Of a stretch of 64,000 nucleotides of DNA, positions 4,172-63,914 are shown one piece after another. This DNA is from a bacterium (GTDB lineage Bacteria; Patescibacteriota; Minisyncoccia; Phycocordibacterales; CAIRYW01). The translations under genes and the position numbers were made by a program. Under the pieces are notes generated by a model. It ran no database searches and had not been told where the DNA came from. It was given only the letters and a program-made list of their open reading frames with translations. The stretch covers positions 1,329 to 65,328 of the forward strand of contig JAYTUJ010000030.1 of the NCBI GenBank assembly GCA_043744615.1, given 5' to 3'. Within the stretch, counting starts at the first letter, position 1, and each line of letters starts with the position of its first letter.

Positions 4172-7100
4172 TTAAGGAGTTATTATTGATGATTTTGAAC
4201 TTTCTGAAGCAGCTTTAATTTTTTCACGAGCAGTAGTTGTTAATTTATCAGCAGAATGTCCGCTCAATCCAATAAACCTACCGTCTCCGTTGTCTGCAAA
4301 TTTTTCAGCCTTTGAATAATGAACAGATTCTTTGTTAATTGTATCTTTTAGATTATCTATTTCACCTTTGATAAATCCTTTTTCCACATCAGTTTTTGTA
4401 CCCTTTGTACTCTCTAACTCGTCCTCTTTTTTAATTAAGAGTGTTACATTTTTGTCCAAAGATTCTTTTTGATTTTTTAATTTTTCTTTAAAAAGATTTG
4501 CAACAGTATCAAAATCATCTTCTTGCAGTTTTTTAGAACTGATTAAACTTTTTAATAATTCAGGAGTCATACGATCTTGAAAAGCAGCACCATGATTTTT
4601 AATAAGATCGGAAAGAGTTTCTTTGTTTAGTCCGCCCAACTGAGCATCGTTTAATGTAGTTAATTGAGTTTTAACAGCACTAGATTTTTCTGCAGGAGTG
4701 GTTGTCGTTGAGTCTAGAATATGCTGTGTTTCGGTTTGATGGTACGATAAATGACCTTCTTTTGCACGGTTTCTTTCTTGGGTTACTGCGTCCGAAGTTT
4801 TAAAATATTGAGTTTCTTTCCCTGTAATAGGATCTTTCGGTTTTGCCATTGCTGTAAGTGAGCCCTTTTTCTCAAAATAATTGTCTTGAACAGCTTGTTC
4901 TTTTGGTGAAAGGCCTTCATATATTCTTTTTGCTCGGTCGTACGAGGTAGGATCTTTTTTATCCTCAGCAAGTTTCTTTAAGTGCGAAGCAAGTTTTTCG
5001 GGTTTATTTCTAACTTCTCTTGCATACGCATCATCATTTTTCTCAAGCATTTCAGTTTTTGCTTTTAGACTTTGAACAAAAGGTAAGCCTCCTGTTGAGT
5101 TTCCGTGTGAGTCAACCCCAGCCTTGCCCCCCAGACTAAATTCTGTAGCAGCATGAGTCAGAGCGATTTGTTTTCTTGCCCACTTACCTCGCCAAGTATC
5201 CTGAGTCGCCTGTCTTTTTAGTTCCTCCCCCTCTTCACTATTTTCAAGTCTGTGTTCTGCATTATGAGCAAACTGATTCCATTTTTTTTGTGGATATGCT
5301 AATACAGCACCTTTTGCAAAATTAGTCCCTTTACTTCGCATTTTTGCAAATAATGCAGCAGAATTTTCAGCACCGCTTATTCCAAGACGTTTACTGATAG
5401 TCACTGAAAATATAAGCATGGTAATGAGAATTATAAAGTTCAAGACCACACCCAACGCACTTGTTTTTGGTGTATCGCTAAAGGCAGAAGAAAAAGCGGT
5501 AAGTCCTAAACCGTCTTTAAAAGTAGGATCATTAGCTATCCGCAACACTACCCAGATCATGATCAAAAATGCAGGGGCATAAATAGCATTATTAATTAAA
5601 GACTTTTTCCATTCATTACTCATTTCTTCTCCACCCGGAAGTATTGGTGCGACAAACGCAAGTGGAGACAGTATTAAAAGACCAATAAAAGTTACAAATC
5701 TTCCGATAAAAGTAAGGGTTACCGCAAGCATGACAATTGTAAAAAAGAATGCAAATATAATACCCATTGCAAAAAGTAAAAATGGATGTTCGCTTCGAGC
5801 AAAATTACGCCCCGGATCAGCGTCTACTGCATTAGGTGTTTTACCATCAGCATAAAAAGATTGTATACGAACTATCGATAATAGAGCCGTCCCTAGTTTA
5901 CTTTGTGTAATATTTGCTTTTGTATCACCATCTTGAAATGTTATATGACTATAAAATTCAGTTGCAACAATGTTTGATGCATCAATAATTGCTTTGGTAA
6001 AAAATAGACTAAAGTTTATTAACAGCGCTGCAATAATTAGCTTGCTGATTAACTGTTTTACGTTGTATGTATGTAGTTGAAGAATGGTTCCGATTGATGC
6101 ATAAATAAGTGCAAAGATAAAAAAAATGTTTGAGAGATCTCTAAAAGTTTTCCATGCGTCATTAATGACGGTCATGCGTTTTATCTGATCACTCATATTT
6201 AAAACCGTTTTGTCAAAAACTAAATCAAATAGACTTGCTATCCAACCAGCAAGCCACATAAATGCAAACATTATGTAGTAGAGTCCTTGAGTAACACAGT
6301 TAATTAAATGGAAATTCAAAGGATTAAGACTACAAGTACCATCGTCACCAACAGTTCTTCCATTCTGGATTTTAGACAAATCTTTAGGATTTAGTGTTGT
6401 ATTCGCTAATTCCTTATTAGCAGAAGCTTCTTGATTGCGTGTATTTGTTGCAATACCTAATAGCTTTGCAAGTTGAGGTTGATTGTTTATACTACCATCC
6501 CCTCTTTTTTCTGCGGGATTAGTAAAATAAGCACTATTACTATCGTTTTTCCATATCCAGGTTGTTCCATAGTTTGACATGTTTCCATCGCTATACACTG
6601 TTCGTAGATCGTATGCTCCACAGCCATGTTCTTCAGCAGGATTAAATCGAACAAGCCATACTCCTGTTACAAAATCGTCCGCAGAATTTGGTTTTTGATC
6701 GGTTCCTGGGTTATATCGAATTATGTAAGTTTCACTTTTTGTACTATTTTGCAGAGGAACACTTATAAAGTATTCTGCTCTACCGTTTACTAAGGTAGCT
6801 GTGTTCAACTCTATTTTTGTATTTACTTGTTTTGTTGTAGCGTTTAAATCTTTTACATTCCAAAAAATTTGTCCATCAACTGCAGTCCCTCCTCCTGCTC
6901 CTACAAAACTACTTTCACTCTGGTTTTCTTGAGATATAGATATTCTTTTCGCCGCATCTAAATTTACAGAGGTCTGACCGTTTGTCCCATCAGAATATCC
7001 TTTATTACCATAAGTTGCGGTACATTGTTGAGGTGTGTAAAGAGTGTGGTATTGAGGGTCGTTATCATTTGCAATTATTGAAGCTTTAGTATAATCCGCA

Positions 7101-48368: not shown

Positions 48369-48425
48369 TTTTATCTTTTAAATACTTGCATTACACTATT
48401 TTGTATAGTAAAGTATGTGCCACAA

Positions 48426-48839
48426 ATGCCAACAATTAATCAGCTTACAAAAAGGAACCGAACAAAGACAAAACGAAAGTCAAAGTCGGTAGCTCTTACT
48501 CGAGGTTTTAACACAATTAAAAACCGACCAATCTTTTTTAATTCTCCTTTTAAACGAGGGGTTTGTACAAAAGTAACTACAAAAACACCTAAGAAACCTA
48601 ACTCAGCGGTTCGAAAGATTGCCCGAGTACGATTAACAAACGGTCTTGAAGTAACAGCGTATATTCCAGGAATCGGACACAACTTACAAGAACACTCTGT
48701 AGTAGTTGTACGAGGAGGACGAGTAAAAGACGTCGGACTTCGATACCAGGTTGTACGAGGTGTTCTCGACTCAACAGGAGTAGAAAAACGAGGTCAATCT
48801 CGAAGTCGATATGGAGCTAAACGGCCAAAAGCTAAGTAA
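48426..48839 (+). CDS. rpsL: 30S ribosomal protein S12
   Basis: MPTINQL...[10 protein letters not shown]...[10 protein letters not shown]. The called ORF begins 3 codons earlier, at 48417. Confidence 0.9.
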
Positions 48840-48847
48840 TAAATTTT

Positions 48848-49318
48848 ATGCGAAGACCCTTAAAACGAAAACATACAGTAAAAGCTGATCCTGTATATGG
48901 TTCAGAAAAAGTTGAAAAGTTTATCAACTATGTTATGGAACGTGGAAAAAAGAACGCTGCTCGAAAGATCATCTACGGAGCTCTTGAAACAATAAAAGAA
49001 AAACTTAAAGTTGAAAATCCTATGGAAGTGTTTGATCTAGCTATCGTAAACACAAGTCCTATCATGGAAGTTCGATCACGACGAGTTGGGGGTGCTAACT
49101 ATCAAGTTCCTCGAGAAGTTCGACCAGAACGACGACTACAACTTTCTATGCGATGGATCAAAGACGCTGCAAGGTCAAAAAAGGGTCAACCAATGCACAT
49201 CAAAATTGCTGATGAAATTATCGCTGCTTCAAAAAATGAAGGCGAAGCTATTAAAAAGCGAGAAAACACTCACAAGATGGCAGAAGCCAACAAAGCATTT
49301 GCTCACTTCGCTTGGTAA
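48848..49318 (+). CDS. rpsG: 30S ribosomal protein S7
   Basis: S7 signature GKKNAARKI...RRVGGANYQVP. Confidence 0.9.
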   Translation: MRRPLKRKHTVKADPVYGSEKVEKFINYVMERGKKNAARKIIYGALETIKEKLKVENPMEVFDLAIVNTSPIMEVRSRRVGGANYQVPREVRPERRLQLSMRWIKDAARSKKGQPMHIKIADEIIAASKNEGEAIKKRENTHKMAEANKAFAHFAW

Positions 49319-49441
49319 TCTCACTAAACTAAAAATTAAACAGGTCGCAAGGCCTGTTTTTTTATTGCAAAGATACAAATTTAATGCTATTTTATCTGCA
49401 CGACCTAACTAAGTCGGCTTGTTTATTTATTATTATTTTTT

Positions 49442-51583
49442 ATGAATAGAGACTACCCCCTAGAACGAGTTCGAAACTTTGGAATTATCGCCCACATTGA
49501 TGCGGGTAAAACAACAACATCAGAACGAATCCTGTATTACACAGGTATGAGTCATAAAATTGGTGAAGTTCACAACGGTGAAGCAACAACAGACTGGATG
49601 GAACAAGAAAAAGAACGAGGTATTACAATTACCGCGGCCGCTATTACTTGTTTCTGGAACCCAACATACATGGGAGACGACAAGTCAATGATGCACCGAT
49701 TTAACATCATCGACACCCCTGGTCACGTAGACTTTACGGTAGAAGTAGAACGATCTCTTAAAGTTCTTGACGGAGGAGTTGTAGTTTTTGACGGAGTAGC
49801 TGGAGTAGAACCACAATCAGAAACTGTATGGCGACAAGCTGACAAATATAAAGTTCCTCGAATTTGTTTTATTAACAAGCTCGACCGAACAGGTGCTTCT
49901 TTTGACCGATCATTTAACTCTATTCTTGATCGACTCAACAAAAATGCAGTTCGAATGCAACTTCCAATTGGTCTTGAAGATCAACACGACGGAGTTGTAG
50001 ATTTGCTTACTCGAAAAGCATACAAATTCGAAGGAGACATGGGAAATAAAATCATCATGGAAGATGTTCCTGAAGATATGAAAGCAGATGTTGAAAAATA
50101 TCGAGCTATTTTGATCGAAAAAGTTGCTGAACACGATGAAGTTTTAATGAATATGTATCTTGAAGGAAACGAACCTTCAGTACCTGAACTCAAAAAAGTT
50201 ATTCGAAAGGCAGTTATTTCTAACTCATTGTTCCCAGTATTCGCGGGATCAGCTTTGAAAAACAAAGGAGTACAAATTGTACTTGATGCAGTAGTTGAAT
50301 ACCTTCCATGTCCACTTGATATTCCTCCAGTTCGAGGTCTTGATCCAGCAACAGGAGCAGAAATTTTCCGAAAACCTTCTGACACAGAGCCATTTGCTGC
50401 GCTCGCATTTAAATTGCAAACAGATCCTTTCGTAGGACAACTTACATTCTTCCGAGTATATTCTGGAACAGTTGAATCTGGTTCATATCTATATAACTCA
50501 ACAACTGGTAATAAAGAACGACTAGGACGAATCGTACGACTTCAAGCAAACAAGCGAGAAGAAGTTAAAAAAGTTTTTGCCGGAGAAATTGCAGCTGCGG
50601 TAGGATTAAAAGAAGCAAAAACTTCTCATACATTTTGTGATGAAGCACAACCAATCGTTCTTGATCCAATTAAATTTGCTGAACCAGTAGTATCTCTTCG
50701 AATTGAACCTAAAACAAAAGCTGACCAAGAAAAAATGGGTATGGCTCTTAAAAAACTTTCTGATGAAGATCCAACATTCCGAATTTCTTCAAACCAAGAA
50801 ACAGGAGAAACATTGGTTGCGGGTATGGGAGAACTTCATCTCGAAATTATGATCGACCGAATGAAACGAGAATTCGGCGTTGATGCAACTATCGGAAAGC
50901 CACAAGTAGCATACCGAGAAACTATTTTAGGAACTGCAGAAGCTGAACACAAATACATTAAACAATCCGGAGGTAAAGGTCAGTATGGTCACGTTAAAAT
51001 TACTCTTAAGCCAATGGAAAAATTGGAAGAAGGAGCAAAGATTCCTAAAAACGTTAAACGATACGACGACTTTGAATTTATCGACAGTATTAAAGGAGGG
51101 GTTATTCCAAACGAATTTATTCCTGCTGTTGAAAAAGGAGTTCACGAAGCGATGGATCGAGGTATCGTTGCTGGATTCAAAATGGTAAACGTTTCTTGTG
51201 AACTTACATTCGGTTCATATCACGATGTAGACTCTTCTGAAATTGCATACAAAATTGCAGGGTCACAAGCCTTCCAAGATGGTGCGAAACGAGCAAAAGC
51301 GGTTATTCTTGAGCCTATTATGAAGGTAGAGGTAGTTACTCCAGAAAAATTCATGGGAGACATTACAGGAAGTCTTTCATCAAAGCGAGCTCAAATTGAA
51401 GGAATTGAAGACCGAGGACTTTTGAAAGTTATTCGAGCAATGGTTCCACTTTCAGAAATGTTCGGATATGTAACTTCTCTTCGATCAATGACCGAAGGAC
51501 GAGGAAGTTCAACTATGGAATTTGATCACTACGAAGTGGTTCCTCCAAACGTTGAAAAAACTATTGTTGAAGCACGAAAATAA
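49442..51583 (+). CDS. fusA: Elongation factor G
   Basis: [16 protein letters not shown]-domain and full-length EF-G domain organisation. Confidence 0.95.
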
Positions 51584-51613
51584 TCTAAAACTTCTAGATT
51601 AAAATCAAAAAAA

Positions 51614-51651
51614 GAACAGGCTCCACTAAAAAAGTGGAGCCTGTTTTTTTA
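51614..51651 (+). terminator. Rho-independent terminator after fusA
   Basis: ACAGGCTCCACT-AAAAA-AGTGGAGCCTGT followed by T7. Confidence 0.6.
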
Positions 51652-51687
51652 TATTAAGCCGTAAGACCCTTTAAAAAGCAAATAAAT

Positions 51688-51718
51688 TTGACACTTTAGC
51701 GATATTTGCTATTATATT
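51688..51718 (+). promoter_or_regulatory. Candidate sigma70-like promoter for the S19-L5 operon (TTGACA, 17 nt, ATTATA), followed by a short leader hairpin
   Basis: Consensus -35 TTGACA at 51688-51693. -10 at 51711-51716. Leader hairpin GCTCG-TTA-CGAGC plus TGTTTTAGTTT at ~51724-51748. Confidence 0.4.
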
Positions 51719-51755
51719 GCCTAACGCTCGTTACGAGCTGTTTTAGTTTAGTCTT

Positions 51756-52103
51756 ATGACACGATCACTTAAAAAAGGACCATATATTGAAGACCGACTC
51801 TTGAAAAAGATCGAAGGAAAAAAGCCACTTGACGTTGGTCCTATTAAAACATGGTACCGACGAAGCCAAATTTCTCCAGAAATGATTGGTTTTATTTTTG
51901 CGGTTTATAACGGAAAACAACACATCGAAGTTCTTATTAGTGAAGAAATGGTTGGTCATCGACTTGGTGAATTCTCTCCAACACGTAAATTCAACAAACA
52001 CGGAGGTAAGATGCAAAAAGAACTTGATACAGCTAAAAAAGAAGCTGAAATTAACGCTGCAAAATCAGCTAAAGCTCCTGCAGCAACTGGACCTAAAAAA
52101 TAA
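51756..52103 (+). CDS. rpsS: 30S ribosomal protein S19 with a Lys/Ala-rich C-terminal extension
   Basis: [17 protein letters not shown] ... [11 protein letters not shown]. ~23 extra C-terminal residues. Confidence 0.9.
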
Positions 52104-52116
52104 TTAAATATCTATC

Positions 52117-52503
52117 ATGAAAGCATCACTTATAAATTACAGACAATCACCACGAAAAGTTCGACTTGTGGTTGACCTTGTTCGAGGAAAAACAGTAAGT
52201 GAAGCAATCTCCCTTCTTAAATTTACTGAAAAACGAGCTTCAGAAGTTATTTCTAAACTTATCTCTTCAGCTTTTGCAAATGCAAAAAATACTGGAGTAA
52301 ACTCTGATGCAACAGTACTTTTTATTAAAGAAATTTCAGTTGATAAAGGAATCACTCTTAAACGAATGATGCCACGAGCACGAGGATCATCAGCACCAAT
52401 CCGAAAACGATCAAGTCATGTTGAGCTTGTATTAGGTGTTAAAGAAGTAAAAGAAAAAGTAGTAAAAGCAAAAAAAACTAGCTCAACAAAAACTAAAAAA
52501 TAA
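52117..52503 (+). CDS. rplV: 50S ribosomal protein L22
   Basis: L22 signature PRKVRLVVDLVRGK. Lys-rich C-terminal tail. Confidence 0.9.
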   Translation: MKASLINYRQSPRKVRLVVDLVRGKTVSEAISLLKFTEKRASEVISKLISSAFANAKNTGVNSDATVLFIKEISVDKGITLKRMMPRARGSSAPIRKRSSHVELVLGVKEVKEKVVKAKKTSSTKTKK

Positions 52504-52506
52504 TTT

Positions 52507-53166
52507 ATGTCACATACAGTACATCCATATTCACATAGACTAGGAATCATTCGCGACTGGAAAAGTCGTTGGTTTGGAGTTGATGCTGATTATCGACAAA
52601 ATCTAAAGTGTGACATCATGCTTCGAGAATGGCTTCAAAAGAAAATGCGAGGTCAATATGTAAGTTCTGTTGAAATGGAACGAGATTCAAAAGCTCTTCG
52701 ACTTATCATCAAAACTTCACGACCTGGATTTATCATTGGACGAAGTGGAGACGGAATCACTAAGCTTCGAGCAGAAATCGAAAAGAAGATGAAGAAGCTT
52801 AATGTTTTCCGAAAAAACGAAGAACTAAAAATTGATGTTGAAGAAGTGAAGTCTCCGGAGTCGAATGCTTCTATTGTTGCACAAATGGTTTCAGAAGGTC
52901 TCGAAAAGCGAATGCCTTTTAGACGAATTCTAAAACAAACTGTTGAAAAAGTAAGTGCTAACAGAGACGTTCTTGGTGTTAAAATTTCTATGTCAGGCCG
53001 ACTAGGAGGAGCTGAAATGGCTCGACACGAAGTTCTTAAAAAAGGAAGAATTCCACTCCAGACATTTCGAGCAGACATTGACTATGCTCACTACGAAGCT
53101 TTACTTACCTATGGAAAAATAGGTATTAAAGTTTGGGTGTATAAGGGTGAAATTTTCAATAAATAA
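52507..53166 (+). CDS. rpsC: 30S ribosomal protein S3
   Basis: VHPYSHRLGIIRDWKSRWF N-terminus and a KH domain. Confidence 0.9.
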   Translation: MSHTVHPYSHRLGIIRDWKSRWFGVDADYRQNLKCDIMLREWLQKKMRGQYVSSVEMERDSKALRLIIKTSRPGFIIGRSGDGITKLRAEIEKKMKKLNVFRKNEELKIDVEEVKSPESNASIVAQMVSEGLEKRMPFRRILKQTVEKVSANRDVLGVKISMSGRLGGAEMARHEVLKKGRIPLQTFRADIDYAHYEALLTYGKIGIKVWVYKGEIFNK

Positions 53167-53180
53167 TTAATACTACTACC

Positions 53181-53603
53181 ATGTTTTTTCCAAAAAAAGT
53201 AAAATATCGAAAATGGCAAACATCACGACGAAATTCAAAACGTCCTCTTATTGCTACACGAGGAACTAAGCTTTCTTTTGGATTGGCTGGTCTTAAAGCT
53301 ACATCTGCATACCGACTTAAATCAAATCAAATCGAATCAGCTCGAAAAGTAATCAGTCGATCAATTGGTAAAACAGGAAAAGTTTGGATTCGAGTTTTTC
53401 CAGATCGACCGTACACACAAAAACCTCCTGAAGTAGCCATGGGTAAAGGAAAAGGAGATCCACAAGGATATTGTTTCCAAGTTGAATCAGGCCGAGTACT
53501 CTTTGAAGTCGACGGAGTAACTGTACAAATTGCAGAGCAAGCTCTTTTAAAAGCAGCTGCAAAATTGCCTTTGAGTACAAAAGTAATAACACGAGTTGCA
53601 TAA
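53181..53603 (+). CDS. rplP: 50S ribosomal protein L16
   Basis: PKKVKYRK...GLKA signature. Confidence 0.9.
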   Translation: MFFPKKVKYRKWQTSRRNSKRPLIATRGTKLSFGLAGLKATSAYRLKSNQIESARKVISRSIGKTGKVWIRVFPDRPYTQKPPEVAMGKGKGDPQGYCFQVESGRVLFEVDGVTVQIAEQALLKAAAKLPLSTKVITRVA

Positions 53604-53607
53604 ATAT

Positions 53608-53790
53608 ATGAAAGACTTACTTACAAAAGAAGTTTCTGAACTTAAAAAAATGATCGGAGAAAAAAAAGAAGAACTTCGAAAATTTCGATTCGGTGTTGTT
53701 AACGGAAAGACTAAGAACACAAAAGAAGCACACACAATCAAAAAAGATATTGCACGTGTTCTTACTGCAATTAATTCTAAAATGAAATAA
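53608..53790 (+). CDS. rpmC: 50S ribosomal protein L29
   Basis: MKDLLTKEVSELKKMIGEKKEELRKFRF. The start is placed at the MKDLL methionine. Confidence 0.8.
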   Translation: MKDLLTKEVSELKKMIGEKKEELRKFRFGVVNGKTKNTKEAHTIKKDIARVLTAINSKMK

Positions 53791-53791
53791 T

Positions 53792-54058
53792 ATGCCTACT
53801 AAAAAAACAGAAGTAAAAGAAAAAGTAGTTTCACGAAAAAAAGAACTCACAGGAGTTGTTGTTTCAGATAAGATGAAAGACACTATTGTGGTTGCAGTAG
53901 ATAACTACAAGAAACACGAAAAATATCAAAAATTCTTAAAACGAACAAAACGATTTAAGGCTGATGATAAAGGAAACACATGTAAAATTGGTGACAAAGT
54001 AACTATTCAAGAGTGTCGACCAATTTCAAAAGATAAGAAGTTTATCGTAATAAAGTAA
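53792..54058 (+). CDS. rpsQ: 30S ribosomal protein S17
   Basis: GVVVSDKMKDTIVV ... ECRPISKDKKF. Confidence 0.9.
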   Translation: MPTKKTEVKEKVVSRKKELTGVVVSDKMKDTIVVAVDNYKKHEKYQKFLKRTKRFKADDKGNTCKIGDKVTIQECRPISKDKKFIVIK

Positions 54059-54062
54059 TACC

Positions 54063-54443
54063 ATGATTCAAGAACGATCAATTGTAAAAATTGCAGATAA
54101 CTCAGGAGCCAAAGTTGGCCGAGTGTTCAAAGTACTTGGAAGTGCGGCTAAACGATATGCGTATCTTGGTCAGCTTGTAATTCTTTCAGTGCAAAAAGCT
54201 GAACCTCGAAAAGCAGTAAAAAAGAAAGACGTTCTTACTGCAATTGTTGTTCGATCAAAAAATGCACACCGACGAAAAGACGGTTCATATATTCGATTCG
54301 ATGAAAACGCTGTTGTTATTTTACAAAAAGCAGCGAAAGGAAAGTTAGAACCAATGGCTGGACGTATTTTTGGACCTATTCCACGTGAGATTGGTGAATT
54401 GGGATACCAAAAAATTGTTTCTCTTGCTCCAGAAATTGTGTAG
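54063..54443 (+). CDS. rplN: 50S ribosomal protein L14
   Basis: MIQERSIVKIADNSGAK. Confidence 0.9.
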   Translation: MIQERSIVKIADNSGAKVGRVFKVLGSAAKRYAYLGQLVILSVQKAEPRKAVKKKDVLTAIVVRSKNAHRRKDGSYIRFDENAVVILQKAAKGKLEPMAGRIFGPIPREIGELGYQKIVSLAPEIV

Positions 54444-54473
54444 TATTAGTCAATCTCGTAATTTTAAAAAACC

Positions 54474-54689
54474 ATGAGTATCAAAAAAGGCGACAAAGTA
54501 ATAGTGATTACCGGAGGAAACAAAGGTAAAAAAGGAAAAGTACAAACTGTTCTTCGACAAGAAGGAAAGGTTGTTATTGAAGGTGTTAATATGAAAAAGA
54601 AACACGTTAAAGCAACACGAAACAGTAAAGGAAGTGTTATCGAAAAAGCATTCCCGATTCATATTTCTAACGTTAAGATTGAAAAATAA
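54474..54689 (+). CDS. rplX: 50S ribosomal protein L24
   Basis: KKGDKVIVITGGNKGKKGKV (KOW motif). Confidence 0.9.
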   Translation: MSIKKGDKVIVITGGNKGKKGKVQTVLRQEGKVVIEGVNMKKKHVKATRNSKGSVIEKAFPIHISNVKIEK

Positions 54690-54690
54690 T

Positions 54691-55230
54691 ATGATGACAA
54701 TTAAAGAAAAAGTTCAAAAATCATTTGACGCGTTAAAGGGCGAATTTGGTTATAAAAATAAAATGGAAGCTCCACGACTTGTTAAAGTTGTGTTGAGTTC
54801 AGGTATTGGTTCTGTTAAAGATCCAAAACGAAAAGAGTTGATTGGTAAAAAATTAACTTTGATTGCCGGACAAAACGTGATAACACGAACAGCTAAAAAA
54901 TCTATCGCTACTTTTAAAGTTCGACAAGGTGATGCTTCAGGTTACCAAGTTACTCTTCGAGGACAACGAATGTATGATTTTCTTGATAAGTTGGTAAACA
55001 TTTCTCTTCCACGAACAAAAGACTTCCGAGGACTAAAACGAGAAGCAGTAGATGCAATGGGTAACTACACAATTGGTATTAAAGAAAATACTATTTTCCC
55101 AGAAACATCTGACGAAGATCTAAAAGATGTATTCGGTTTCTCAATCATCGTTGTTACCAGTAAGAACGACAAAAAAGAAACTCTCTCATTCTTAACTCAT
55201 CTAGGATTTCCGTTTAAGAAAGAGGCGTAA
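54691..55230 (+). CDS. rplE: 50S ribosomal protein L5
   Basis: L5 signature. The start is placed at the MMTIKEK methionine; the called ORF from 54634 overlaps L24 and is an upstream read-through artefact. Confidence 0.85.
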   Translation: MMTIKEKVQKSFDALKGEFGYKNKMEAPRLVKVVLSSGIGSVKDPKRKELIGKKLTLIAGQNVITRTAKKSIATFKVRQGDASGYQVTLRGQRMYDFLDKLVNISLPRTKDFRGLKREAVDAMGNYTIGIKENTIFPETSDEDLKDVFGFSIIVVTSKNDKKETLSFLTHLGFPFKKEA

Positions 55231-55249
55231 ATAAAAAATTTAAATAAAT

Positions 55250-55300
55250 AAAAAAGAAAACAAGGTCGACTCCAAAAAAGAGTCGACCTTGTTTGTTCCA
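55250..55300. terminator. Bidirectional terminator between rplE and the convergent MazG-like gene
   Basis: CAAGGTCGACTC-AAAAAAG-AGTCGACCTTG flanked by an A-run and a T-run. Confidence 0.6.
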
Positions 55301-55317
55301 GAACCTTTCTTTGGAGG

Positions 55318-55950
55318 TTAACGCTCATCACCTGTTTTGTCTTGAACTTTTCGCTCAATCCGGCTTGCTATTTTTGCCAGATTTTCTATTGCGACATATT
55401 CGAGAGTGGTTTCTAATGTAGAGCATGCATTAGAGATTAGCAAAAGTGTTTCGCTTAATCCTGCTAACAAAACCAGTTTGTCGGCAGGGGTAATTTTACC
55501 TTTCTCGTGCCAGCAAATCCTTTTAAATTTTCCAGTAACTATCGCAACTTTTCCGGCAAGTCGACCTAAAAGTTCGAGACGGCTAAGCTTTGGTTTTCTG
55601 ATACTTTTTTCGAAGTATTCTTTAAATGTAAGACAAGTCTTTCGTTTTGTTTTTTCTTCATGAATTCCAAGCAAAGCAATCTCCTCAAATGACGATCCAA
55701 GGAGTCGTGACAAAGAACAGGTATACCAAAGTATGTCGCCAAGTTCTTTGGTCAATAATTCTAAATCATGTTTACTAGGTGCTTTATTGTCTGAAATGAT
55801 TTGCACAAGTTTTTCGATAAACTCAAGTGTTTCATCGCTGAAACCAAGGATGTTAGCAATAAATGCTGCGAATAGTAGAGGGGTTCCTACAGGACAATCT
55901 GTTCGAGACGCCACTTTTTGATAGCGATTAAACGTCATATGCATACGCAT
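55318..55950 (-). CDS. MazG-like all-alpha nucleoside triphosphate pyrophosphohydrolase
   Basis: ELGDILWY motif and EExxE-type helices. Modest support. Confidence 0.5.
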   Translation of the reverse strand: MRMHMTFNRYQKVASRTDCPVGTPLLFAAFIANILGFSDETLEFIEKLVQIISDNKAPSKHDLELLTKELGDILWYTCSLSRLLGSSFEEIALLGIHEEKTKRKTCLTFKEYFEKSIRKPKLSRLELLGRLAGKVAIVTGKFKRICWHEKGKITPADKLVLLAGLSETLLLISNACSTLETTLEYVAIENLAKIASRIERKVQDKTGDER

Positions 55951-56080
55951 AATATTTCCTCCAAGTTATAGGTTGTGGTCAAAGAGCTATCATTCACCGT
56001 TGTTGGGAATAAAAGGTTTGACCGGTGTTAGCTAGTTATAGCACAGAAGATATTGTATGCAAATTAAAAAATCTTAAAAG

Positions 56081-56112
56081 TTAAAAGAGCATTTTCGTCA
56101 TGATACAATATT
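56081..56112 (+). promoter_or_regulatory. Candidate extended -10 promoter (TGATACAAT) for tatD
   Basis: TGnTACAAT at 56101-56109, ~10 nt before the tatD ATG. Weak -35. Confidence 0.3.
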
Positions 56113-56118
56113 GATTAT

Positions 56119-56937
56119 ATGAATTCAGATTCTCATTTTATCGACATTCACTGCCACACAAATATGGAGCAGTTTGATGCTGATTATAAAGAAGTAATAA
56201 AGCGGGCTCATGAAAAAGATGTGTGGATAATAAATGTGGGTGTGGATAAGTTAACTTCGCAAAAAGCTGTCGAAATTGCTGAACAATATGAAGAGGGAGT
56301 ATATGCAGTTATAGGACTTCATCCGACTGATAGCCCAGAAGATTTTGACTTAGAATTTTATAAAAGTCTTGCGAAGTCAAAAAAAGTTATAGCTATTGGT
56401 GAGTGTGGCCTAGACTTTTTTCACATCGATCCAAATAAAGAAGAGAACCAAGTGAACAATGGTTCACTTAAAAGACAAATTAAAATATTCGAACAACAAA
56501 TTGAGCTTGCTTTAGAGCTTGATCTTCCAATTATGATTCATTGTCGAGATGCTTACAAAGAGACATTAGAAGTCATTGACCGATATAAAGGACAAAATAA
56601 GTTTTTGGGCAAAAAGCTTCGAGGAGACGTTCACTTTTTTGCAGGCGATGTTGCCACAGCAAAAGCTTTTACTGATCGAGACTTTAGTTTGTCCTTTACA
56701 GGGGTGATTACCTTTACGCATGATTATGACGCAACTATCGAATCTGTTTCTGTCGATAATATTATGTCTGAAACAGATAGTCCTTTTGTTGCGCCAGTGC
56801 CGTATCGTAAAACTCGTAATGAACCCGCCTATGTTATTGAGGTCGTAAAACGACTGGCTGAACTCAAAAAAATGACCATTGAACAAGCCAAAGATACTAT
56901 ATTTAAAAACGCCTCAAATCTCTTTACTTTTAGATAA
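56119..56937 (+). CDS. tatD: TatD-family metal-dependent DNase/hydrolase
   Basis: IDIHCH N-terminal His cluster, GECGLD, and C-terminal DSPF metal ligands. Confidence 0.8.
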   Translation: MNSDSHFIDIHCHTNMEQFDADYKEVIKRAHEKDVWIINVGVDKLTSQKAVEIAEQYEEGVYAVIGLHPTDSPEDFDLEFYKSLAKSKKVIAIGECGLDFFHIDPNKEENQVNNGSLKRQIKIFEQQIELALELDLPIMIHCRDAYKETLEVIDRYKGQNKFLGKKLRGDVHFFAGDVATAKAFTDRDFSLSFTGVITFTHDYDATIESVSVDNIMSETDSPFVAPVPYRKTRNEPAYVIEVVKRLAELKKMTIEQAKDTIFKNASNLFTFR

Positions 56938-57089
56938 TTTCTGTTATATTACATGAACGCATTTGCGCTTTTTTAATTTATAAAAACGCATTGTTAATTA
57001 TCAGAACCGTCTTTTAGGTTACTTCTGAAGCCATAATAAGGGCTGGCAGAGGAAAAACTAGGGACAATTTAAAAATACTACATAATTAT

Positions 57090-58283
57090 ATGGCAGAAGT
57101 TTTTGAACGAACAAAACCTCACGTTAACGTTGGTACAATTGGCCACGTTGACCACGGTAAGACAACTCTTACCGCAGCAATACTTAACGTATTGGCTCGA
57201 GCAGGAAACAATTCTAAGGTTAAAGCTGTTGATCAAATTGACAACGCTCCCGAAGAAAAAGCTCGAGGAATCACTATTAACCTTTCTCACAACGAGTACG
57301 AAACAGCAGCTCGACACTACGCTCACATCGATGCACCGGGTCACGCTGACTATATTAAGAACATGATCACAGGAGCCGCACAAATGGACGGCGCTATTCT
57401 TGTGGTTGCTGCTACTGATGGAGCGATGCCTCAAACTCGAGAACACGTTCTTCTTGCTAAACAAGTAGGTGTGCCAAAAATTATCGTTTTCCTAAACAAA
57501 TGCGATATGGTACCTGATAAAGATCTTATTGATCTTGTTGAAGAAGAAGTACGAGAACTTTTGACAAAACAAGGATTCGACGGAGCAAACGCTCCAGTTA
57601 TCCGAGGTTCAGGACTTAAAGCTCTTGAAGCAACAGATAATACCGATGAATGGTCAAAGAAAGTTCTAGAACTTGCTGACGCTCTTGATACATACATCCC
57701 AGTTCCAATTCGAGAAACTGACAAACCTTTCCTTATGCCTATTGAAGACATCTTCACTATCGAAGGACGAGGAACAGTAGTAACAGGACGAATCGAACGA
57801 GGTATGGTAAAAGTTGGAGAAGAAGTTGAAATCATCGGAATCAAACCAACATCTAAAACTACAGTTACTGGTATTGAAATGTTCAATAAGCAACTTAACG
57901 AAGGAATGGCTGGAGACAACGCTGGTATTCTTCTTCGAGGTGTTAAAAAAGAAGATCTTACACGAGGTCAAGTAATTGCAAAAACAGGTTCAGTTTTGCC
58001 TCATACAGAATTTGAATCAGAAGTTTACATTCTTAAAAAAGAAGAAGGTGGACGACACACTCCTTTCTTTACTGGATACAAACCTCAATTTTACATCCGA
58101 ACAACGGACGTAACTGGAGAAGTAACCCTTAACGAAGGAGTAGAGATGGTTATGCCGGGCGATACCGTAACCTTTAAAGTTAAACTCGTAGCTCCTGTAG
58201 CTCTTGAAGACAAGCAACGATTTGCTATTCGAGAAGGAGGAAAGACAGTAGGTGCTGGAGTTGTAACAAAAGTTACACTTTAG
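57090..58283 (+). CDS. tuf: Elongation factor Tu
   Basis: [19 protein letters not shown] ... DCPGHADY. Confidence 0.95.
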
Positions 58284-58308
58284 TCTTATTTGGCCTAGCC
58301 GACATTCT

Positions 58309-58674
58309 ATGTCTACGAAAGAAACAACAAAAAAGAAGGCCGCTAAGTCTGGTGCTAAAGAAGAATCAGGTTCAAAACTTCGAATTCGAGTTCGAGCATA
58401 TGAGCATAAAATATTAGATGCTTCAGTGAAGCAGATAATGGATACTGCTGTTCGATACGATGCGAAGATTGTAGGACCGATTCCTCTTCCAACTGAAATT
58501 CGAAAATATACTGTTAACCGAGCGTCATTCGTTTTTAAGAATGCTCGAGAACAGTTTGAAATGCGAATTCACAAGCGATTATTGGATATCATTAATCCAA
58601 ATCAAAAAATCGTTGAAGCACTAACCAACTTAAGCTTGCCTTCAGGAGTAAATATTGACGTAAAGATGATATAG
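58309..58674 (+). CDS. rpsJ: 30S ribosomal protein S10 with a ~20-aa Lys/Ala-rich N-terminal extension
   Basis: LRIRVRAYEHKILD ... core of S10, preceded by MSTKETTKKKAAKSGAKEESGSK. Confidence 0.9.
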   Translation: MSTKETTKKKAAKSGAKEESGSKLRIRVRAYEHKILDASVKQIMDTAVRYDAKIVGPIPLPTEIRKYTVNRASFVFKNAREQFEMRIHKRLLDIINPNQKIVEALTNLSLPSGVNIDVKMI

Positions 58675-58677
58675 CCT

Positions 58678-59289
58678 ATGAAATTCTTACTCGGAACAAA
58701 ACAAAATATGACGCAGGTGTTCGATGAGGATGGAACTGTTTATCCGGCTACTATCATTAAAACTTCGCCAAACGTTATCTCTCAAATTAAAACTTTAGAG
58801 AGTGATGGATATACTGCAGTGCAAGTTGCATTCGGTACAAAGGCAGAGAAAAATATGAAGAAGCCGCAAAAAGGCCACCTCAAAGATTTAGGAAATTTCG
58901 CAACGTTGCGAGAATTCAGACTAACTGACGTTTCACCATATAAAGTAGGTGATAAAATAGAATCAAGTATTTTTACAGAAAACGAAGAGATTGAAGTTTC
59001 TTCAATTTCAAAAGGAAAAGGGTTTCAAAGTGCTATCAAACGACATGGTTTTCATGGAGGTCCACGAAGTCATGGTCAAAAGCACTCTGAACGAGAACCA
59101 GGTTCTATCGGTGCCGGAGGATACCAACGTGTATTCAAAGGAACTCGAATGGCAGGACGAATGGGAAGTGACAGAGTAACTGTTACTAACCTCAAAGTTC
59201 TTAAAATCAGTCCAGAAACTAATGAAATTTTCATTAGTGGAGCAATTGCAGGTCGAAGAGGAACACTTGTAGAAATTAAATCTGCATAA
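58678..59289 (+). CDS. rplC: 50S ribosomal protein L3
   Basis: L3 signature GTKQNMTQVFDEDG ... GKGFQSAIKRHGF. Confidence 0.9.
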   Translation: MKFLLGTKQNMTQVFDEDGTVYPATIIKTSPNVISQIKTLESDGYTAVQVAFGTKAEKNMKKPQKGHLKDLGNFATLREFRLTDVSPYKVGDKIESSIFTENEEIEVSSISKGKGFQSAIKRHGFHGGPRSHGQKHSEREPGSIGAGGYQRVFKGTRMAGRMGSDRVTVTNLKVLKISPETNEIFISGAIAGRRGTLVEIKSA

Positions 59290-59290
59290 T

Positions 59291-59956
59291 ATGGAAACAA
59301 AAATATACAACCAGTCTGGAAAAGAAGCAGGAAAGGTAATTTTACCTGAAAGCATTTTTGGATTACCATGGAACGCCGATCTTGTTCATCAAGTAGTTAC
59401 TTCGATGATGACAAACGCTCGAATCCATTATGCTCACACAAAAACACGAGGTGAGGTAAGAGGAGGAGGAAAGAAACCTTGGAAACAAAAAGGAACAGGA
59501 CGAGCACGACACGGATCAACACGATCTCCGATCTGGGTTGGTGGAGGTGTTGCGCACGGACCACGAAATGATAAAAACTTTGACCGAAAGGTTAACAAGA
59601 AGATGAAAGCAAAGGCTTTGTACACAATTCTTTCTCAAAAAAATCGTGACGGAGAACTTGTATTCATCGATGATGTAAAAGTAGAAGGAAAAGCAAAAAA
59701 TGCATTAGTAGTTCTTAAGAGTCTTTCAGCTGTAAAAGGTTTTGAAAAACTAACAAAGAAACGAACAAATGCCGCTATTATTGCTACTGCATCAAAAGAT
59801 TTGTTAATTGAACGAGGTTTTGCAAACTTTGGAAGCATGTCTGTTTCAGAAGTTCGAAACTTAAACCCAATTGAAGTTTTGAATCACAAATACTTAGTAA
59901 TTGTGAATCCACAAGTTTCGATCAGTATTTTAGAAGCTCGAAGCGCTAAGAAATAA
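59291..59956 (+). CDS. rplD: 50S ribosomal protein L4
   Basis: KKPWKQKGTGRARHGS signature. Confidence 0.9.
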   Translation: METKIYNQSGKEAGKVILPESIFGLPWNADLVHQVVTSMMTNARIHYAHTKTRGEVRGGGKKPWKQKGTGRARHGSTRSPIWVGGGVAHGPRNDKNFDRKVNKKMKAKALYTILSQKNRDGELVFIDDVKVEGKAKNALVVLKSLSAVKGFEKLTKKRTNAAIIATASKDLLIERGFANFGSMSVSEVRNLNPIEVLNHKYLVIVNPQVSISILEARSAKK

Positions 59957-59961
59957 TTCTC

Positions 59962-60246
59962 ATGAAAACAACTCATTCAGATCATATGGTAAAACCATAC
60001 GTAACCGAAAAAGCTGCTCTTCTTGCGGAAAAAGATAATGCATACACATTTCAAATTTCAAAGACTGCTACAAAAACGGGAATTCTAAAAGCGATCAATA
60101 CTCTGTATAACGTAAAGCCAACAAAAGTTAATATCATTAATCTTCCACGAAAAAAAGTTTTTGTACGAGGAAAAAATGGTGTAACAAAAGCAATAAGGAA
60201 GGCAGTCGTATTCCTTAAAAAAGGTGATAAGATTGATCTTGCATAA
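59962..60246 (+). CDS. rplW: 50S ribosomal protein L23
   Basis: YVTEKA...FQISKTATK...KVNIINLPRKK. Confidence 0.85.
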   Translation: MKTTHSDHMVKPYVTEKAALLAEKDNAYTFQISKTATKTGILKAINTLYNVKPTKVNIINLPRKKVFVRGKNGVTKAIRKAVVFLKKGDKIDLA

Positions 60247-60249
60247 TAT

Positions 60250-61089
60250 ATGAAACGATATAAACCAACATCGAAATCTCGTCGAGAAATGACACACGTT
60301 ACATACCGTGGCGTGCTGACAAATTCAACACCAGAAAAATCACTTGTTAAAGGATACAAGCGTTCAGTTGGACGAAACTCATTTGGCCGAATTACAACTC
60401 GACACAAAGGAGGCGGACACAAACGACTATTCCGAGACGTTGATTTTAAATTCGACAAAAAAGACATTGCAGGAAAAATTGTATCAGTTGAATACGATCC
60501 AAACCGATCAGGATTTATTGGTCTTACTGTGTATCCAGACGGTGAAAAGCGATATGTGCTTTTGCCTACATCAATTAAAGTTGGAGACACAATTGTGACT
60601 TCAGAAAAAGCTGACATCAAAGCTGGAAACCGATTGTTACTTCGAAACATTCCTGTGGGAACTTTCATCTATAACGTTGAAATAAAACCATTAGGAGGTG
60701 CTCGAATTGCTCGATCAGCAGGTGACTACGCAGAACTTATTGCGCTTGACGGTGAATATGTTCAAGTTAAGCTTCCTTCAACAGAAGTTCGAAAACTTCC
60801 AGCTCATGCATGGGCAAGTGTTGGACAAGTTTCAAACGAAGAAAAGCATCTTGAAAACTTTGGAAAGGCAGGACGAAGTCGATGGAAAGGTATTCGACCA
60901 ACAGTTCGAGGTACTGCTCAGAATGCGGTGGATCACCCATACGGAGGAGGAGAAGGACGACAAGGCCGAGGAACCAAACGAGCTAAAACTCGATGGGGAA
61001 AGCCAGTTGGAAAGGGTCAAAAATCACGACGTTCAAAGAAATACTCAAACAAGTTTGTTGTTACACGCCGAAAGGTTGGAAAGAAATAA
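60250..61089 (+). CDS. rplB: 50S ribosomal protein L2
   Basis: RHKGGGHKR ... HPYGGGEGR signature. Confidence 0.95.
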   Translation: MKRYKPTSKSRREMTHVTYRGVLTNSTPEKSLVKGYKRSVGRNSFGRITTRHKGGGHKRLFRDVDFKFDKKDIAGKIVSVEYDPNRSGFIGLTVYPDGEKRYVLLPTSIKVGDTIVTSEKADIKAGNRLLLRNIPVGTFIYNVEIKPLGGARIARSAGDYAELIALDGEYVQVKLPSTEVRKLPAHAWASVGQVSNEEKHLENFGKAGRSRWKGIRPTVRGTAQNAVDHPYGGGEGRQGRGTKRAKTRWGKPVGKGQKSRRSKKYSNKFVVTRRKVGKK

Positions 61090-61114
61090 ACTTCAAAAGT
61101 ATATCTCAAATAAA

Positions 61115-61146
61115 AACACTCTCATCTCGAGAGTGTTTTTATTTTG
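61115..61146. terminator. Bidirectional terminator between rplB and the convergent recA
   Basis: CACTCTC-ATCTC-GAGAGTG hairpin with an A-run before and a T-run after. Confidence 0.55.
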
Positions 61147-61174
61147 CGTAATTTTTATTTCTTCGATTCTAAAA

Positions 61175-62302
61175 TTAGATTTCTTTTAGTTTCTTTCGGA
61201 TATCACTCATGATTTTATCGCCAGTCTTTTTATTGTCTCGAAGATATTGTCGTGTTGCGTCGTAGCCTCGTCCAAGTTTTTCTTCTCCGTATGAATATGA
61301 GATTCCTGTTTTTGTAACGATTCCCATTTTTTCTCCGAGGGCAATCATTTCACCTTCTCGAGAAATTCCTTCGTTGTACATTAAATCAAATTCTGTTTGT
61401 TTAAATGGAGCAGCAACTTTATTTTTTACTACTTTTACTCGAACACGTCCTCCCATAATTTCTTCACCTTTTTTAATTTGAGCAATTCGTCGAATATCGA
61501 GTCGAACCGAAGTGTAAAACTTTAACGCTTTTCCTCCTGGGGTTGTTTCTGGGTTTCCAAACATAACACCAATTTGCATTCGGATTTGGTTAATGAAGAT
61601 TACAATTGTTTTACTTTTTGCAACGATAGCAGTAAGTTTTCGTAATGCTTGTGACATCAATCGAGCTTGTTTTCCAACGTGAAATGCTCCCATGTCTCCT
61701 TCGATTTCATCTTTTGGTGTAAGTGCAGCAACAGAGTCGATAACAATAACATCAAGTTTTCCTGATCGAACTAAACTTTCTGTAATTTCTAGACCTTGTT
61801 CTCCTGTGTCAGGTTGTGAAATTAAAAGTTCTTCAATTTTTACTCCAAGTCGTTTTGCATATTCTGGATCAAGTGCATGTTCAGCATCAACGAATGCACA
61901 AATTCCACCTTTTTTTTGTGCCTCAGCAATAACATGAAGTGATAGGGTAGTCTTACCAGAAGATTCTGGTCCAAAGATTTCGATGATTCTTCCTCGAGGT
62001 AATCCTCCAACTCCAAGTGCTGCATCTAAACCAATTGAGCCAGTAGAAATAGCATCAACATCAGTATGAGGTTTATCACCAAGCATCATAATTGCTTCAT
62101 CACCAAATTTCGTTTTTATTTCTCGAAGTGTTGCCTCGATTGAAATCCCACTGTCGTCTCTGCCTTTCTTTGATTTTTTTATACCAGATTCTTCTTCAGC
62201 GACTTCGGCCATTTCTTTGTCGGTTAATCCCGCGTCAGCTTCTGATCGAATCTCTTTTCCAGCGTCCTTTGCACCTTTACTTTTTTTATTTTTGATAGCC
62301 AT
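61175..62302 (-). CDS. recA: Recombinase RecA with a ~45-aa Lys/Glu/Ala-rich N-terminal extension
   Basis: GPESSGKTT Walker A, the L1/L2 loop regions, and the IFINQIR motif. Confidence 0.95.
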
Positions 62303-62726: not shown

Positions 62727-63914
62727 TTATTCAAATTTCACTGCATCCTCACCAGATTCTGTTTTAGAAACAGGGTCAAGAACTTCTCGAGGTCGTGCGC
62801 CATCAGCTGCACCAATAACTCCTCGTTCTTCAAGCATATCCATAAGGCGCGCTGCGCGCGCATAACCTACCCGAAGCTTTCTTTGAATATATGAAGTTGA
62901 AGCTTTTCCCGCACTAATCACAGTTTCTTTTGCATCTTCATATAAATCATCATCGTCATCACTTCCTTCGGTATCGTCAGAGAATGAATTGAATACAACA
63001 TCTTGAGCAGGTTCATCTTTTTGGCTTGCAAATGAAATCTCTGATTGAGGAAGATCATCTTTGTATGCATCAATAATATGTTTTACTACATTTTTTAATT
63101 CGTTTTCAGTAACGTAGGCAGACTGTACTCGTTCTGGTGTAGACATTTCACCTGACATATATAACATGTCTCCGGCACCAAGAAGTTTTTCAGCCCCACC
63201 CATATCAAGAATTGTTCGAGAGTCTATTTGTGAAGCTACTTGAAGAGCAATACGTCCTGGAACGTTTGCTTTAATAAGACCAGTAATAACGTTAACACTT
63301 GGTCGTTGTGTTGAAAGCATTAAGTGAATACCAACTGCTCGAGACATTTGTGCTAAACGAACAATACCTGCTTCAAGTTCTCGAGGATACGTTTGCATGA
63401 TATCTGCCAATTCATCAATAATGAAAATGATGTAAGGCATTTGTTCTGGAACCTCTGCTCCTTCAGCTGCTTTTCCAACCTTTTCTAATTTTTTAAGTGC
63501 TGGTTCAAGAATAGTTTTATGATATGAACCAATATCTCGTACTTTGTGTTCTTCTAATATGTTGTATCGGCGATCCATTTCTTTTGCTGCCCACTTAAGT
63601 GCCAAGATTGCCTTTTTTGCATCGGTGATAACAGGAGTTAATAAGTGGGGGATACCATTATATAGAGTAAGTTCTACTCGTTTCGGATCAACCATGATGA
63701 ATCGAAGGTTTTCAGGCGGGTTTCGATACAGCATTGAAGCGATGAGTGCGTGGATCGTTACTGACTTTCCAGAACCTGTTGCTCCAGCAATAAGAAGGTG
63801 AGGCATCTTTGCAAGGTTTGAAAAATGAGCTTTTCCTGAAACTCCTTTTCCAAGTGCCATAAGCAAATGTTTATCTGATTCTTGAAATTCTGATTGTGAA
63901 AGTAAGTTACCCAA
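62727..63914 (-). CDS. ftsK: DNA translocase FtsK/SpoIIIE (motor plus gamma domain). The N-terminal membrane part probably lies beyond the window edge.
   Basis: Walker A GATGSGKS, FtsK alpha/beta motifs, and C-terminal gamma winged helix TSYIQRKLRVGYARAARLMDMLEE. Confidence 0.8.
   Translation of the reverse strand: MGNLLSQSEFQESDKHLLMALGKGVSGKAHFSNLAKMPHLLIAGATGSGKSVTIHALIASMLYRNPPENLRFIMVDPKRVELTLYNGIPHLLTPVITDAKKAILALKWAAKEMDRRYNILEEHKVRDIGSYHKTILEPALKKLEKVGKAAEGAEVPEQMPYIIFIIDELADIMQTYPRELEAGIVRLAQMSRAVGIHLMLSTQRPSVNVITGLIKANVPGRIALQVASQIDSRTILDMGGAEKLLGAGDMLYMSGEMSTPERVQSAYVTENELKNVVKHIIDAYKDDLPQSEISFASQKDEPAQDVVFNSFSDDTEGSDDDDDLYEDAKETVISAGKASTSYIQRKLRVGYARAARLMDMLEERGVIGAADGARPREVLDPVSKTESGEDAVKFE

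Follow-up and report, generated by a model that had tools for sequence, protein, structure and literature searches.

A probable multi-step relocation of ribosomal protein operons in a Paceibacteria-like bacterium

The 64,000-nucleotide stretch of contig JAYTUJ010000030.1 that was analysed here (the window) carries the genes of the str and S10 ribosomal protein operons in a permuted order. It reads S12-S7-EF-G, then S19-L22-S3-L16-L29-S17-L14-L24-L5, a MazG-like gene on the minus strand, TatD, EF-Tu-S10-L3-L4-L23-L2 and finally RecA on the minus strand (Table 1). The region is best explained as a real, derived and multi-step relocation of translation-gene operons that were already autonomous in a Paceibacteria-type member of the Candidate Phyla Radiation (CPR), and the probability of this reading is put at roughly 0.78. 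Misassembly or horizontal replacement is unlikely to be the cause. What had been taken, from the letters alone, for a simple exchange of two halves of the cluster is better described as two loci interleaved through six breakpoints.

Gene order and integrity of the junctions

The source organism is an uncultured, very small Paceibacteria-like CPR (Patescibacteria) bacterium on an isolated branch. Relatives were gathered by scanning one genome per GTDB species with L5, and the best 80 loci (60 CPR loci plus non-CPR loci) were annotated by tblastn; loci and contigs are referred to by L numbers. The scan returned metagenome-assembled genomes (MAGs) of Nomurabacteria, Campbellbacteria, Kaiserbacteria and Paceibacterota, with L5 identities of 66% or less, and all relatives are about equally distant from the window (55-64% across eight shared ribosomal proteins). 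The best S19 other than the window's own in a search of 5.8 billion proteins is 84% identical, the best TatD in a metagenome scan is 54% identical, and an exact look-up of EF-G returned no record. The window order is shared by none of the 60 CPR loci, and the two closest S19-bearing contigs have the canonical order, not that of the window. Since none of the relatives compared has it, the order could indeed serve as a lineage marker, as the sequence-only reading of this DNA had proposed.

Gene identities were established with NCBIfam equivalog models, Pfam and the listing of open reading frames, and, for the S19-L5 block, with genes called independently on the Logan contig L001. The profile models confirm each gene of the layout described earlier, in which S19-L5 directly follows EF-G and tuf-S10-L3-L4-L23-L2 lies downstream of L5 after two genes; the gene coordinates likewise confirm that the S10 unit is cut between L2 and S19, with its halves in reversed order. 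The str operon genes rpsL-rpsG-fusA are contiguous and co-oriented (48417-51583), and all eleven genes of the S10 operon (S10-L3-L4-L23-L2-S19-L22-S3-L16-L29-S17) are single-copy and within the window. The gap between fusA and S19 is 172 nt, and tuf is found not directly after fusA but 5.5 kb further downstream.

In all, the cluster is cut at three places, EF-G/tuf, L2/S19 and L5/S14. Downstream of L2 come a terminator and recA (minus strand), with S19 located 9.3 kb upstream and led by a promoter motif of its own; beyond L5 there is a hairpin, then the MazG-like gene (minus strand). Of these cuts, the one at L2/S19 had been correctly recognised by the sequence-only reading, whereas the third cut, at L5/S14, and the terminators after EF-G and S7 had not been flagged. 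No match to S14, S8, L6, L18, S5, L15 or SecY was obtained anywhere in the 64 kb window by tblastn with queries from a relative.

The junctions are reproduced outside the MAG. Contigs from single-run Logan assemblies (runs SRR23617272, SRR22198271, SRR22198270 and SRR23617274) are 100% identical to window positions 51205-57771, 54660-57056, 57742-61715 and 58043-61222, tiling 51205-61715 and reproducing all four junctions. These include the two, at 51584-51755 and 55231-57089, at which the earlier reading had advised that the assembly be confirmed. Moreover, EF-G/S19, the succession L5/MazG-like/TatD/5' part of tuf, and that from the 3' part of tuf through L2 to RecA are each contiguous in separate single-run assemblies at 100% identity, so S19 follows EF-G and RecA follows L2, whatever happens inside tuf.

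Transcription-unit boundaries in the window and in the lineage

The TTGACA promoter ascribed to the S19 block is a real motif: the site upstream of S19 is the sole 11/12 sigma-70-like match in 15 kb. The best promoter-like match upstream of tuf reaches only 9/12 (56923-56950). The hairpin after EF-G has an 18-bp stem, an upstream A-run and a downstream U7 tail, and could terminate transcription in both directions. Strong terminators had also been claimed after L5 and L2. The one after L2 holds (its stem is followed by a U-tail), but the hairpin after L5, although strong, is a canonical terminator on the minus strand with a weak U-tail on the plus strand; it would primarily serve the MazG-like gene and possibly, if bidirectional, the L5 side as well. 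To judge from the hairpins after S7 and after fusA, transcription of S12-S7 and of fusA may be terminated or attenuated separately.

To assess conservation of the S19 promoter, the 130 nt preceding every gene start were searched with the regular expression TTGAC[ATC]-N16-17-TAnnAT. Among CPR loci the motif is found upstream of S19 in 27/44 and upstream of S14 in 11/44, and each of 24 other cluster genes has it in 0-1 loci. Non-CPR loci have none, and random windows score 0.9%. An S19-type motif precedes tuf in one of 19 relatives. About 11 nt after the -10 box comes a GC-rich leader hairpin of 5-6 bp with a U-run behind it. When 24 leaders are aligned with MAFFT, 85% of cells are paired, compared with 71% in column shuffles (0/500 shuffles reach 85%), and sliding the 3' partners lowers the pairing to 29-55%; compensatory changes are seen in 5/6 pairs. 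A covariance model of the leader recovers copies outside its training set upstream of S19 (L004, L161) and of S14 (L014, L003), and almost nothing else across 1.3 Mb. Further examples of the S19 element in relatives are L013:5190-5275, L057:6870-6950 and L161:6957-7003 (51688-51755 in the window). The element has no match to an Rfam family, and may represent an undescribed ribosomal-protein operon leader or attenuator.

Rfam gave no family at gathering score in the window save four tRNAs. At relaxed thresholds the S19 leader region and the region upstream of tuf gave only generic sub-threshold matches, those near the S19 leader being matches to the terminator hairpin. The L4-responsive S10 leader RNA has no Rfam match upstream of tuf, and the tuf-S10 gap is only 25 nt. 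This leader is in any case largely confined to Gammaproteobacteria (PMC3616713).

Terminator-like hairpins follow L2 in 22/34 relatives and L5 in 22/53, against a background of 4.7%. The conservation of the motif across relatives indicates that the S19 promoter is ancestral to the lineage and not a by-product of the rearrangement. With an ancestral promoter and leader at the boundaries, the cuts would fall between pre-existing transcription units. There is strong motif evidence for L2/S19 and L5/S14 as putative boundaries between transcription units.

These boundaries are frequently open in the CPR relatives. At L2/S19 the genes are adjacent in 10/42, separated by an insert in 26/42 (0.4-4.7 kb) and disconnected in 6/42, the last having no L2 within 3.3-6.9 kb upstream of S19. 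At L5/S14 the figures are 20/52 adjacent, 28/52 with an insert and 4/52 disconnected, and at EF-G/tuf 3/8, 5/8 and none. Among non-CPR loci the boundaries are open in 0/18, 0/20 and 0/4, respectively. The inserts at L2/S19 and L5/S14 span 0.4-5.3 kb, and the inserted genes are diverse and often antisense (M16 and M3 peptidases, glycosyltransferases, surface proteins and a recurrent Y1 transposase). The view that the L2/S19 cut is a rare event is not borne out for this lineage, as this boundary is open or disconnected in 32/42 relatives and carries the conserved promoter and leader in 27/44.

Inserts are seen at other points as well. Those at S10/L3 (L003, L008, L009, L025, L034, L036, L049, L054 and L057) and at EF-G/tuf (L012, L021, L042, L053, L069 and L161) measure 0.4-2.3 kb, and among the genes in the EF-G/tuf insert of L161 are those for prephenate dehydrogenase and chorismate mutase; the cluster is modular in the lineage at more points than the window shows. 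A distant CPR relative (L066:4891-5600) has an S8-like open reading frame in the L5/S14 gap and hence an apparent L5-S8-S14-L6 order, a further small rearrangement.

The recurrent transposase is an IS200-like Y1 (HUH) enzyme of ~220 amino acids (Pfam PF01797, with HxH and catalytic Tyr motifs), encoded in eight relatives: in or next to the L2/S19 gap in seven, and downstream of L5 in the eighth. Its gene could be either syntenic and domesticated or the product of repeated insertion; the seven L2/S19 relatives are divergent. The window has no homologue by tblastn with the relatives' Y1 proteins (E > 0.5), and a repeat search of 47-63 kb gave only chance-level matches, with no repeats at the junctions. 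Rearrangement mediated by IS200/IS605 (Y1 HUH) elements was considered and rejected, there being neither a transposase gene nor repeat scars at the window junctions.

Taken together, the state of the lineage would be one in which str-S10-spc is no longer a single co-transcribed array and consists of the units S12-S7, fusA, tuf-S10...L2, S19...L5 and S14...SecY. The boundaries EF-G/tuf, L2/S19 and L5/S14 would bear terminators and promoters, S19 being headed by a near-consensus extended -10 promoter, and unrelated genes would have invaded these boundaries repeatedly in the relatives because the units are transcriptionally independent. In the window, S19-L5 would be expressed from its own promoter and end at the 55258-55294 hairpin, and tuf-L2 would be transcribed either from tatD or from a weak promoter close to 56923, ending at the 61108-61143 terminator. 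A broader and more tentative proposal is that Paceibacteria re-partitioned the S10-spc array into autonomous S19- and S14-headed operons with an undescribed autoregulatory or attenuator leader, that this freed the cluster for invasion and dispersal, and that the present genome is the most advanced case; this is possible, though doubtful as it stands.

Interleaving with a second conserved neighbourhood

The surroundings of TatD in other genomes were obtained from a metagenome scan with TatD, the loci being annotated in the same way as the ribosomal ones. The conserved order in relatives is (466-amino-acid gene)-M16 peptidase-AI-2E transporter-MetRS-TatD-S6-SSB-(small open reading frames)-EF-P(-)-RecA(-)-GlucB-like(-)-FtsK(-), and TatD and RecA are 1.9-9 kb apart (median 2.7 kb) in 18 metagenome loci. 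Examples are L104:4724-14103 and L097:4890-14839; L151, the closest locus (TatD 54%, RecA 87% identity), has the neighbourhood too, as do 15 others. TatD and RecA are 4.2 kb apart in the window, with tuf-S10-L3-L4-L23-L2 exactly occupying the interval, and no homologue of M16, AI-2E, MetRS, S6, SSB or EF-P was found in the window. Judged from this gene content, TatD together with RecA(-)-GlucB-like(-)-FtsK(-) is a predicted remnant of the second neighbourhood, with tuf-L2 standing where S6-SSB-EF-P was. Hence, of the two genes described earlier as unrelated, MazG-like and tatD, both are present as stated, but tatD is not unrelated.

Neither L5 followed by TatD nor L2 followed by RecA occurs in any of the relatives' loci. 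In one relative (L007) the TatD-RecA locus appears to be ~180 kb from the ribosomal cluster and in opposite orientation, a figure that is obtained by taking L007 and L099 (476,459 bp each) as the same contig. In L002, one of the closer relatives and the one with the best L5 match (66%), the L2/S19 insert (5399-6664, minus strand) encodes an M16 peptidase. Elsewhere this family stands at the head of the MetRS-TatD neighbourhood, which may be chance or may hint that the two loci have repeatedly exchanged genes.

The proposed relocation would have involved movement of the tuf-L2 unit into the TatD/RecA neighbourhood, displacing S6-SSB-EF-P; joining of the S12...EF-G and S19...L5 segment and the MazG-like gene upstream of TatD, where MetRS was; and removal of S14...SecY to elsewhere. 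Six ancestral adjacencies are broken (EF-G/tuf, L2/S19, L5/S14, MetRS/TatD, TatD/S6 and EF-P/RecA), which requires at least two transpositions or at least three inversions. The changes may have been selectively neutral.

Several points weigh against this reading. There is no close relative in the collections searched (S19 84%, L5 66% and TatD 54% at best), and it is therefore not possible to reconstruct in which order and direction the events took place, or when. The junctions bear no repeats or transposase remnants that would mark a molecular agent. The function of the promoters and terminators is predicted from sequence motifs, and the region as a whole has no more promoter-like sites than shuffled sequence would give (31 versus 35.8), nor more terminator-like matches, so that the junction signals count only through their strength, position and conservation. 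The Logan contigs, moreover, all end in or just before tuf (57742-57771 and 58043), with a 30-nt overlap between L001 and L159, and the MAG may itself have been assembled from the four SRA (Sequence Read Archive) runs.

The break inside tuf means that the linkage from TatD-tuf to S10 rests on the MAG contig and on the TatD-RecA synteny argument. The breaks, and the origin of the window in a metagenome-assembled NCBI contig (68,399 bp), are points in favour of an assembly or binning artefact, such as a chimeric contig joined through the conserved tuf while the real genome is canonical. The breaks are, however, probably de Bruijn graph tangles that stem from the conservation of tuf among community members. 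Both halves of tuf share their closest relatives (rho 0.65), each junction block is contiguous at full identity in separate assemblies, and the proximity of TatD and RecA in 18 relatives is independent support for their linkage, all of which makes an artefact very unlikely. Acquisition of one ribosomal-protein block from another lineage at a new site, with loss of the native copy, would also look like relocation to a non-homologous site; yet tuf-L2 and S19-L5 have the same phylogenetic affinity, ranking the relatives alike (Spearman 0.87) at identities of ~58-66% and 56-64%, respectively, and base composition is uniform across the region. Such a replacement is extremely improbable.

If the two halves had merely swapped, one transposition would have placed S19...L5, the MazG-like gene and TatD into EF-G/tuf and left tuf...L2 unmoved. 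A single block transposition does turn A1-A2-A3 into A1-A3-A2, and all blocks keep their orientation. This would, however, need L2 to have abutted RecA already and TatD to have landed 4.2 kb from RecA by coincidence, when in 18 relatives TatD already lies close to RecA(-)-GlucB-like(-)-FtsK(-) with S6-SSB-EF-P between them. The simple swap is unlikely, given in addition that MetRS, S6, SSB and EF-P are not in the window and that six broken adjacencies are too many for one event. The arrangement might instead be typical of a whole described clade and hence not new, as L2/S19 and L5/S14 are open clade-wide and six relatives have S19 without L2 close upstream; but EF-G is upstream of S19 in none of those six, no locus has the L5-TatD or L2-RecA succession, and full-text literature searches turned up no paper that describes how the ribosomal-protein cluster is organised in CPR, so there is little chance that this is so. 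The multi-step relocation of autonomous operons is accordingly retained as the preferred reading.

As to individual genes of the window, the true start of rpsL is likely the predicted ATG at 48426. L24 is only 71 amino acids long and covers positions 3-72 of the 104-position bacterial model, its C-terminal third being absent (72 amino acids in L162, 99 in L161), and S19, S10 and S17 bear terminal extensions of ~15-25 amino acids. The MazG-like protein, of the all-alpha nucleoside triphosphate pyrophosphohydrolase type, is highly divergent and has two domains in tandem: single-domain proteins of ~110 amino acids match residues ~5-100 on the one hand and 131-210 on the other (HMMER). A full HMMER search of 1.8 billion cluster representatives gave 269 remote homologues (E 1e-11 or weaker), and a word-indexed search of 5.8 billion proteins gave nothing but the protein itself. 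Because its homologues are all remote, this gene is useless for synteny tracing.

Table 1. Features of the rearranged region (window coordinates) and Y1 transposase genes in relatives (locus coordinates)
Feature	Position	Strand	Evidence or remarks
rpsL (S12)	48417-48839	+	TIGR00981, 187 bits
rpsG (S7)	48848-49318	+	TIGR01029, 187 bits
Small putative terminator or attenuator hairpin with U-run, S7-fusA gap	49338-49359	+	-12.8 kcal/mol, z -3.1
fusA (EF-G)	49442-51583	+	TIGR00484, 1051 bits
Strong predicted intrinsic terminator after EF-G	51610-51651	both possible	-28.5 kcal/mol, z -6.8
Promoter-like site, TTGACA-16 nt-TGcTATTAT	51688-51715	+	11/12 positions; 40 nt upstream of S19 start
5' leader hairpin, GCTCG-tta-CGAGC, then U-run	51726-51738	+	
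S19-L5 block	51756-55230	+	NCBIfam equivalogs; gene calls on Logan contig L001
S19	51756-52103	+	
L22	52117-52503	+	
S3	52507-53166	+	
L16	53181-53603	+	
L29	53608-53790	+	
S17	53792-54058	+	
L14	54063-54443	+	
L24	54474-54689	+	
L5	54691-55230	+	
Hairpin between convergent L5 and MazG-like genes	55258-55294		-29 kcal/mol, z -7.0
MazG-like gene, 210 amino acids	55318-55950	-	Pfam MazG, 24.9 bits (cut-off 22), E 2.4e-5
tatD/ycfH-type hydrolase	56119-56937	+	Pfam TatD_DNase, 240 bits
tuf-L2 block	57090-61089	+	NCBIfam; Logan contigs L159, L160
tuf (EF-Tu)	57090-58283	+	
S10	58309-58674	+	
L3	58678-59289	+	
L4	59291-59956	+	
L23	59962-60246	+	
L2	60250-61089	+	
Predicted terminator between convergent L2 and recA	61108-61143	U-runs on both	-20.5 kcal/mol, z -5.8
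recA	61175-62302	-	Pfam
Glucodextranase-B-like gene, 132 amino acids	62315-62713	-	Pfam
ftsK	62727-63914	-	Pfam; longest open reading frame call
Y1 transposase, in or next to L2/S19 gap	L010:876-1535	-	
Y1 transposase, in or next to L2/S19 gap	L021:6259-6975	-	
Y1 transposase, in or next to L2/S19 gap	L023:6528-7190	-	
Y1 transposase, in or next to L2/S19 gap	L027:4123-4791	-	
Y1 transposase, in or next to L2/S19 gap	L029:2209-2871	+	
Y1 transposase, in or next to L2/S19 gap	L013:2680-3360	+	
Y1 transposase, in or next to L2/S19 gap	L026:2526-3368	-	
Y1 transposase, downstream of L5	L017:11992-12669	+	

Comparison with known arrangements of the cluster

The str-S10-spc cluster is a textbook case of a gene order frozen across Bacteria and Archaea, and the '16 syntenic ribosomal proteins' approach to placing uncultured lineages builds on it. 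The value of the present case is moderate as far as it concerns rare adjacencies in one genome; of more interest is the clade-wide re-partitioning with its S19/S14 promoter and leader, which is a natural experiment on whether the cluster is held together by transcriptional coupling and not by gene function. For phylogenomics and binning, a demand that the markers lie on one contig, or an assumption about their order, fails or misleads with such genomes. The adjacencies EF-G-S19, L5-TatD and L2-RecA are candidate rare genomic changes that could delimit a so far unsampled lineage.

Compared with the cluster of E. coli and B. subtilis, each block of the window has the same gene content and internal order, on one strand and within 13 kb, whereas the blocks themselves are permuted (S19 after fusA; tuf...L2 after L5 and two genes) and S14...SecY is detached. 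In E. coli, the points corresponding to the L2/S19 and L5/S14 cuts lie within the S10 and spc operons, whereas S17/L14, an operon boundary there, is uninterrupted in the window (4-nt gap). In cyanobacteria and plastids S10 belongs, with tuf, to the str operon, the cut being at S10/L3 with L3...S17 intact; tuf and S10 are linked in both arrangements, but the window is cut at L2/S19. Among the relatives, L002 (Nomurabacteria MAG JACKFZ010000002) and L007 (Paceibacterota MAG JBAYWG010000001), with ribosomal proteins ~60-64% identical to those of the window, have the same S19 promoter and leader hairpin and terminators after L2. Both have L2/S19 inserts of 2.1-2.2 kb, and L002 alone has one at L5/S14. 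Unlike in the window, tuf...L2 is still upstream of S19 and S14 still downstream of L5.

The ancestral organisation of str-S10-spc has been reconstructed by Brandis (2019, 2021; PMC6735719, PMC8046335). In the invasion-separation model (Brandis 2021, PMC8046335), small insertions between operons relax the selection on synteny, and the operons are then fully disconnected in descendants; tusDCB between rpoBC and str, and bfd-bfr between str and S10, are the cases described (PMC8046335). The CPR loci resemble this, with small insertions at the boundaries in 26/42 relatives at L2/S19 and 28/52 at L5/S14, and full disconnection in six and four relatives, respectively, and in the window. They differ from the published cases in that the process is seen in CPR and at other boundaries, and in that it ends, in the window, in re-joining beside another conserved neighbourhood and not in mere dispersal. 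The type of process is therefore a known one, and what is new, a modest piece of news, is the order in this genome.

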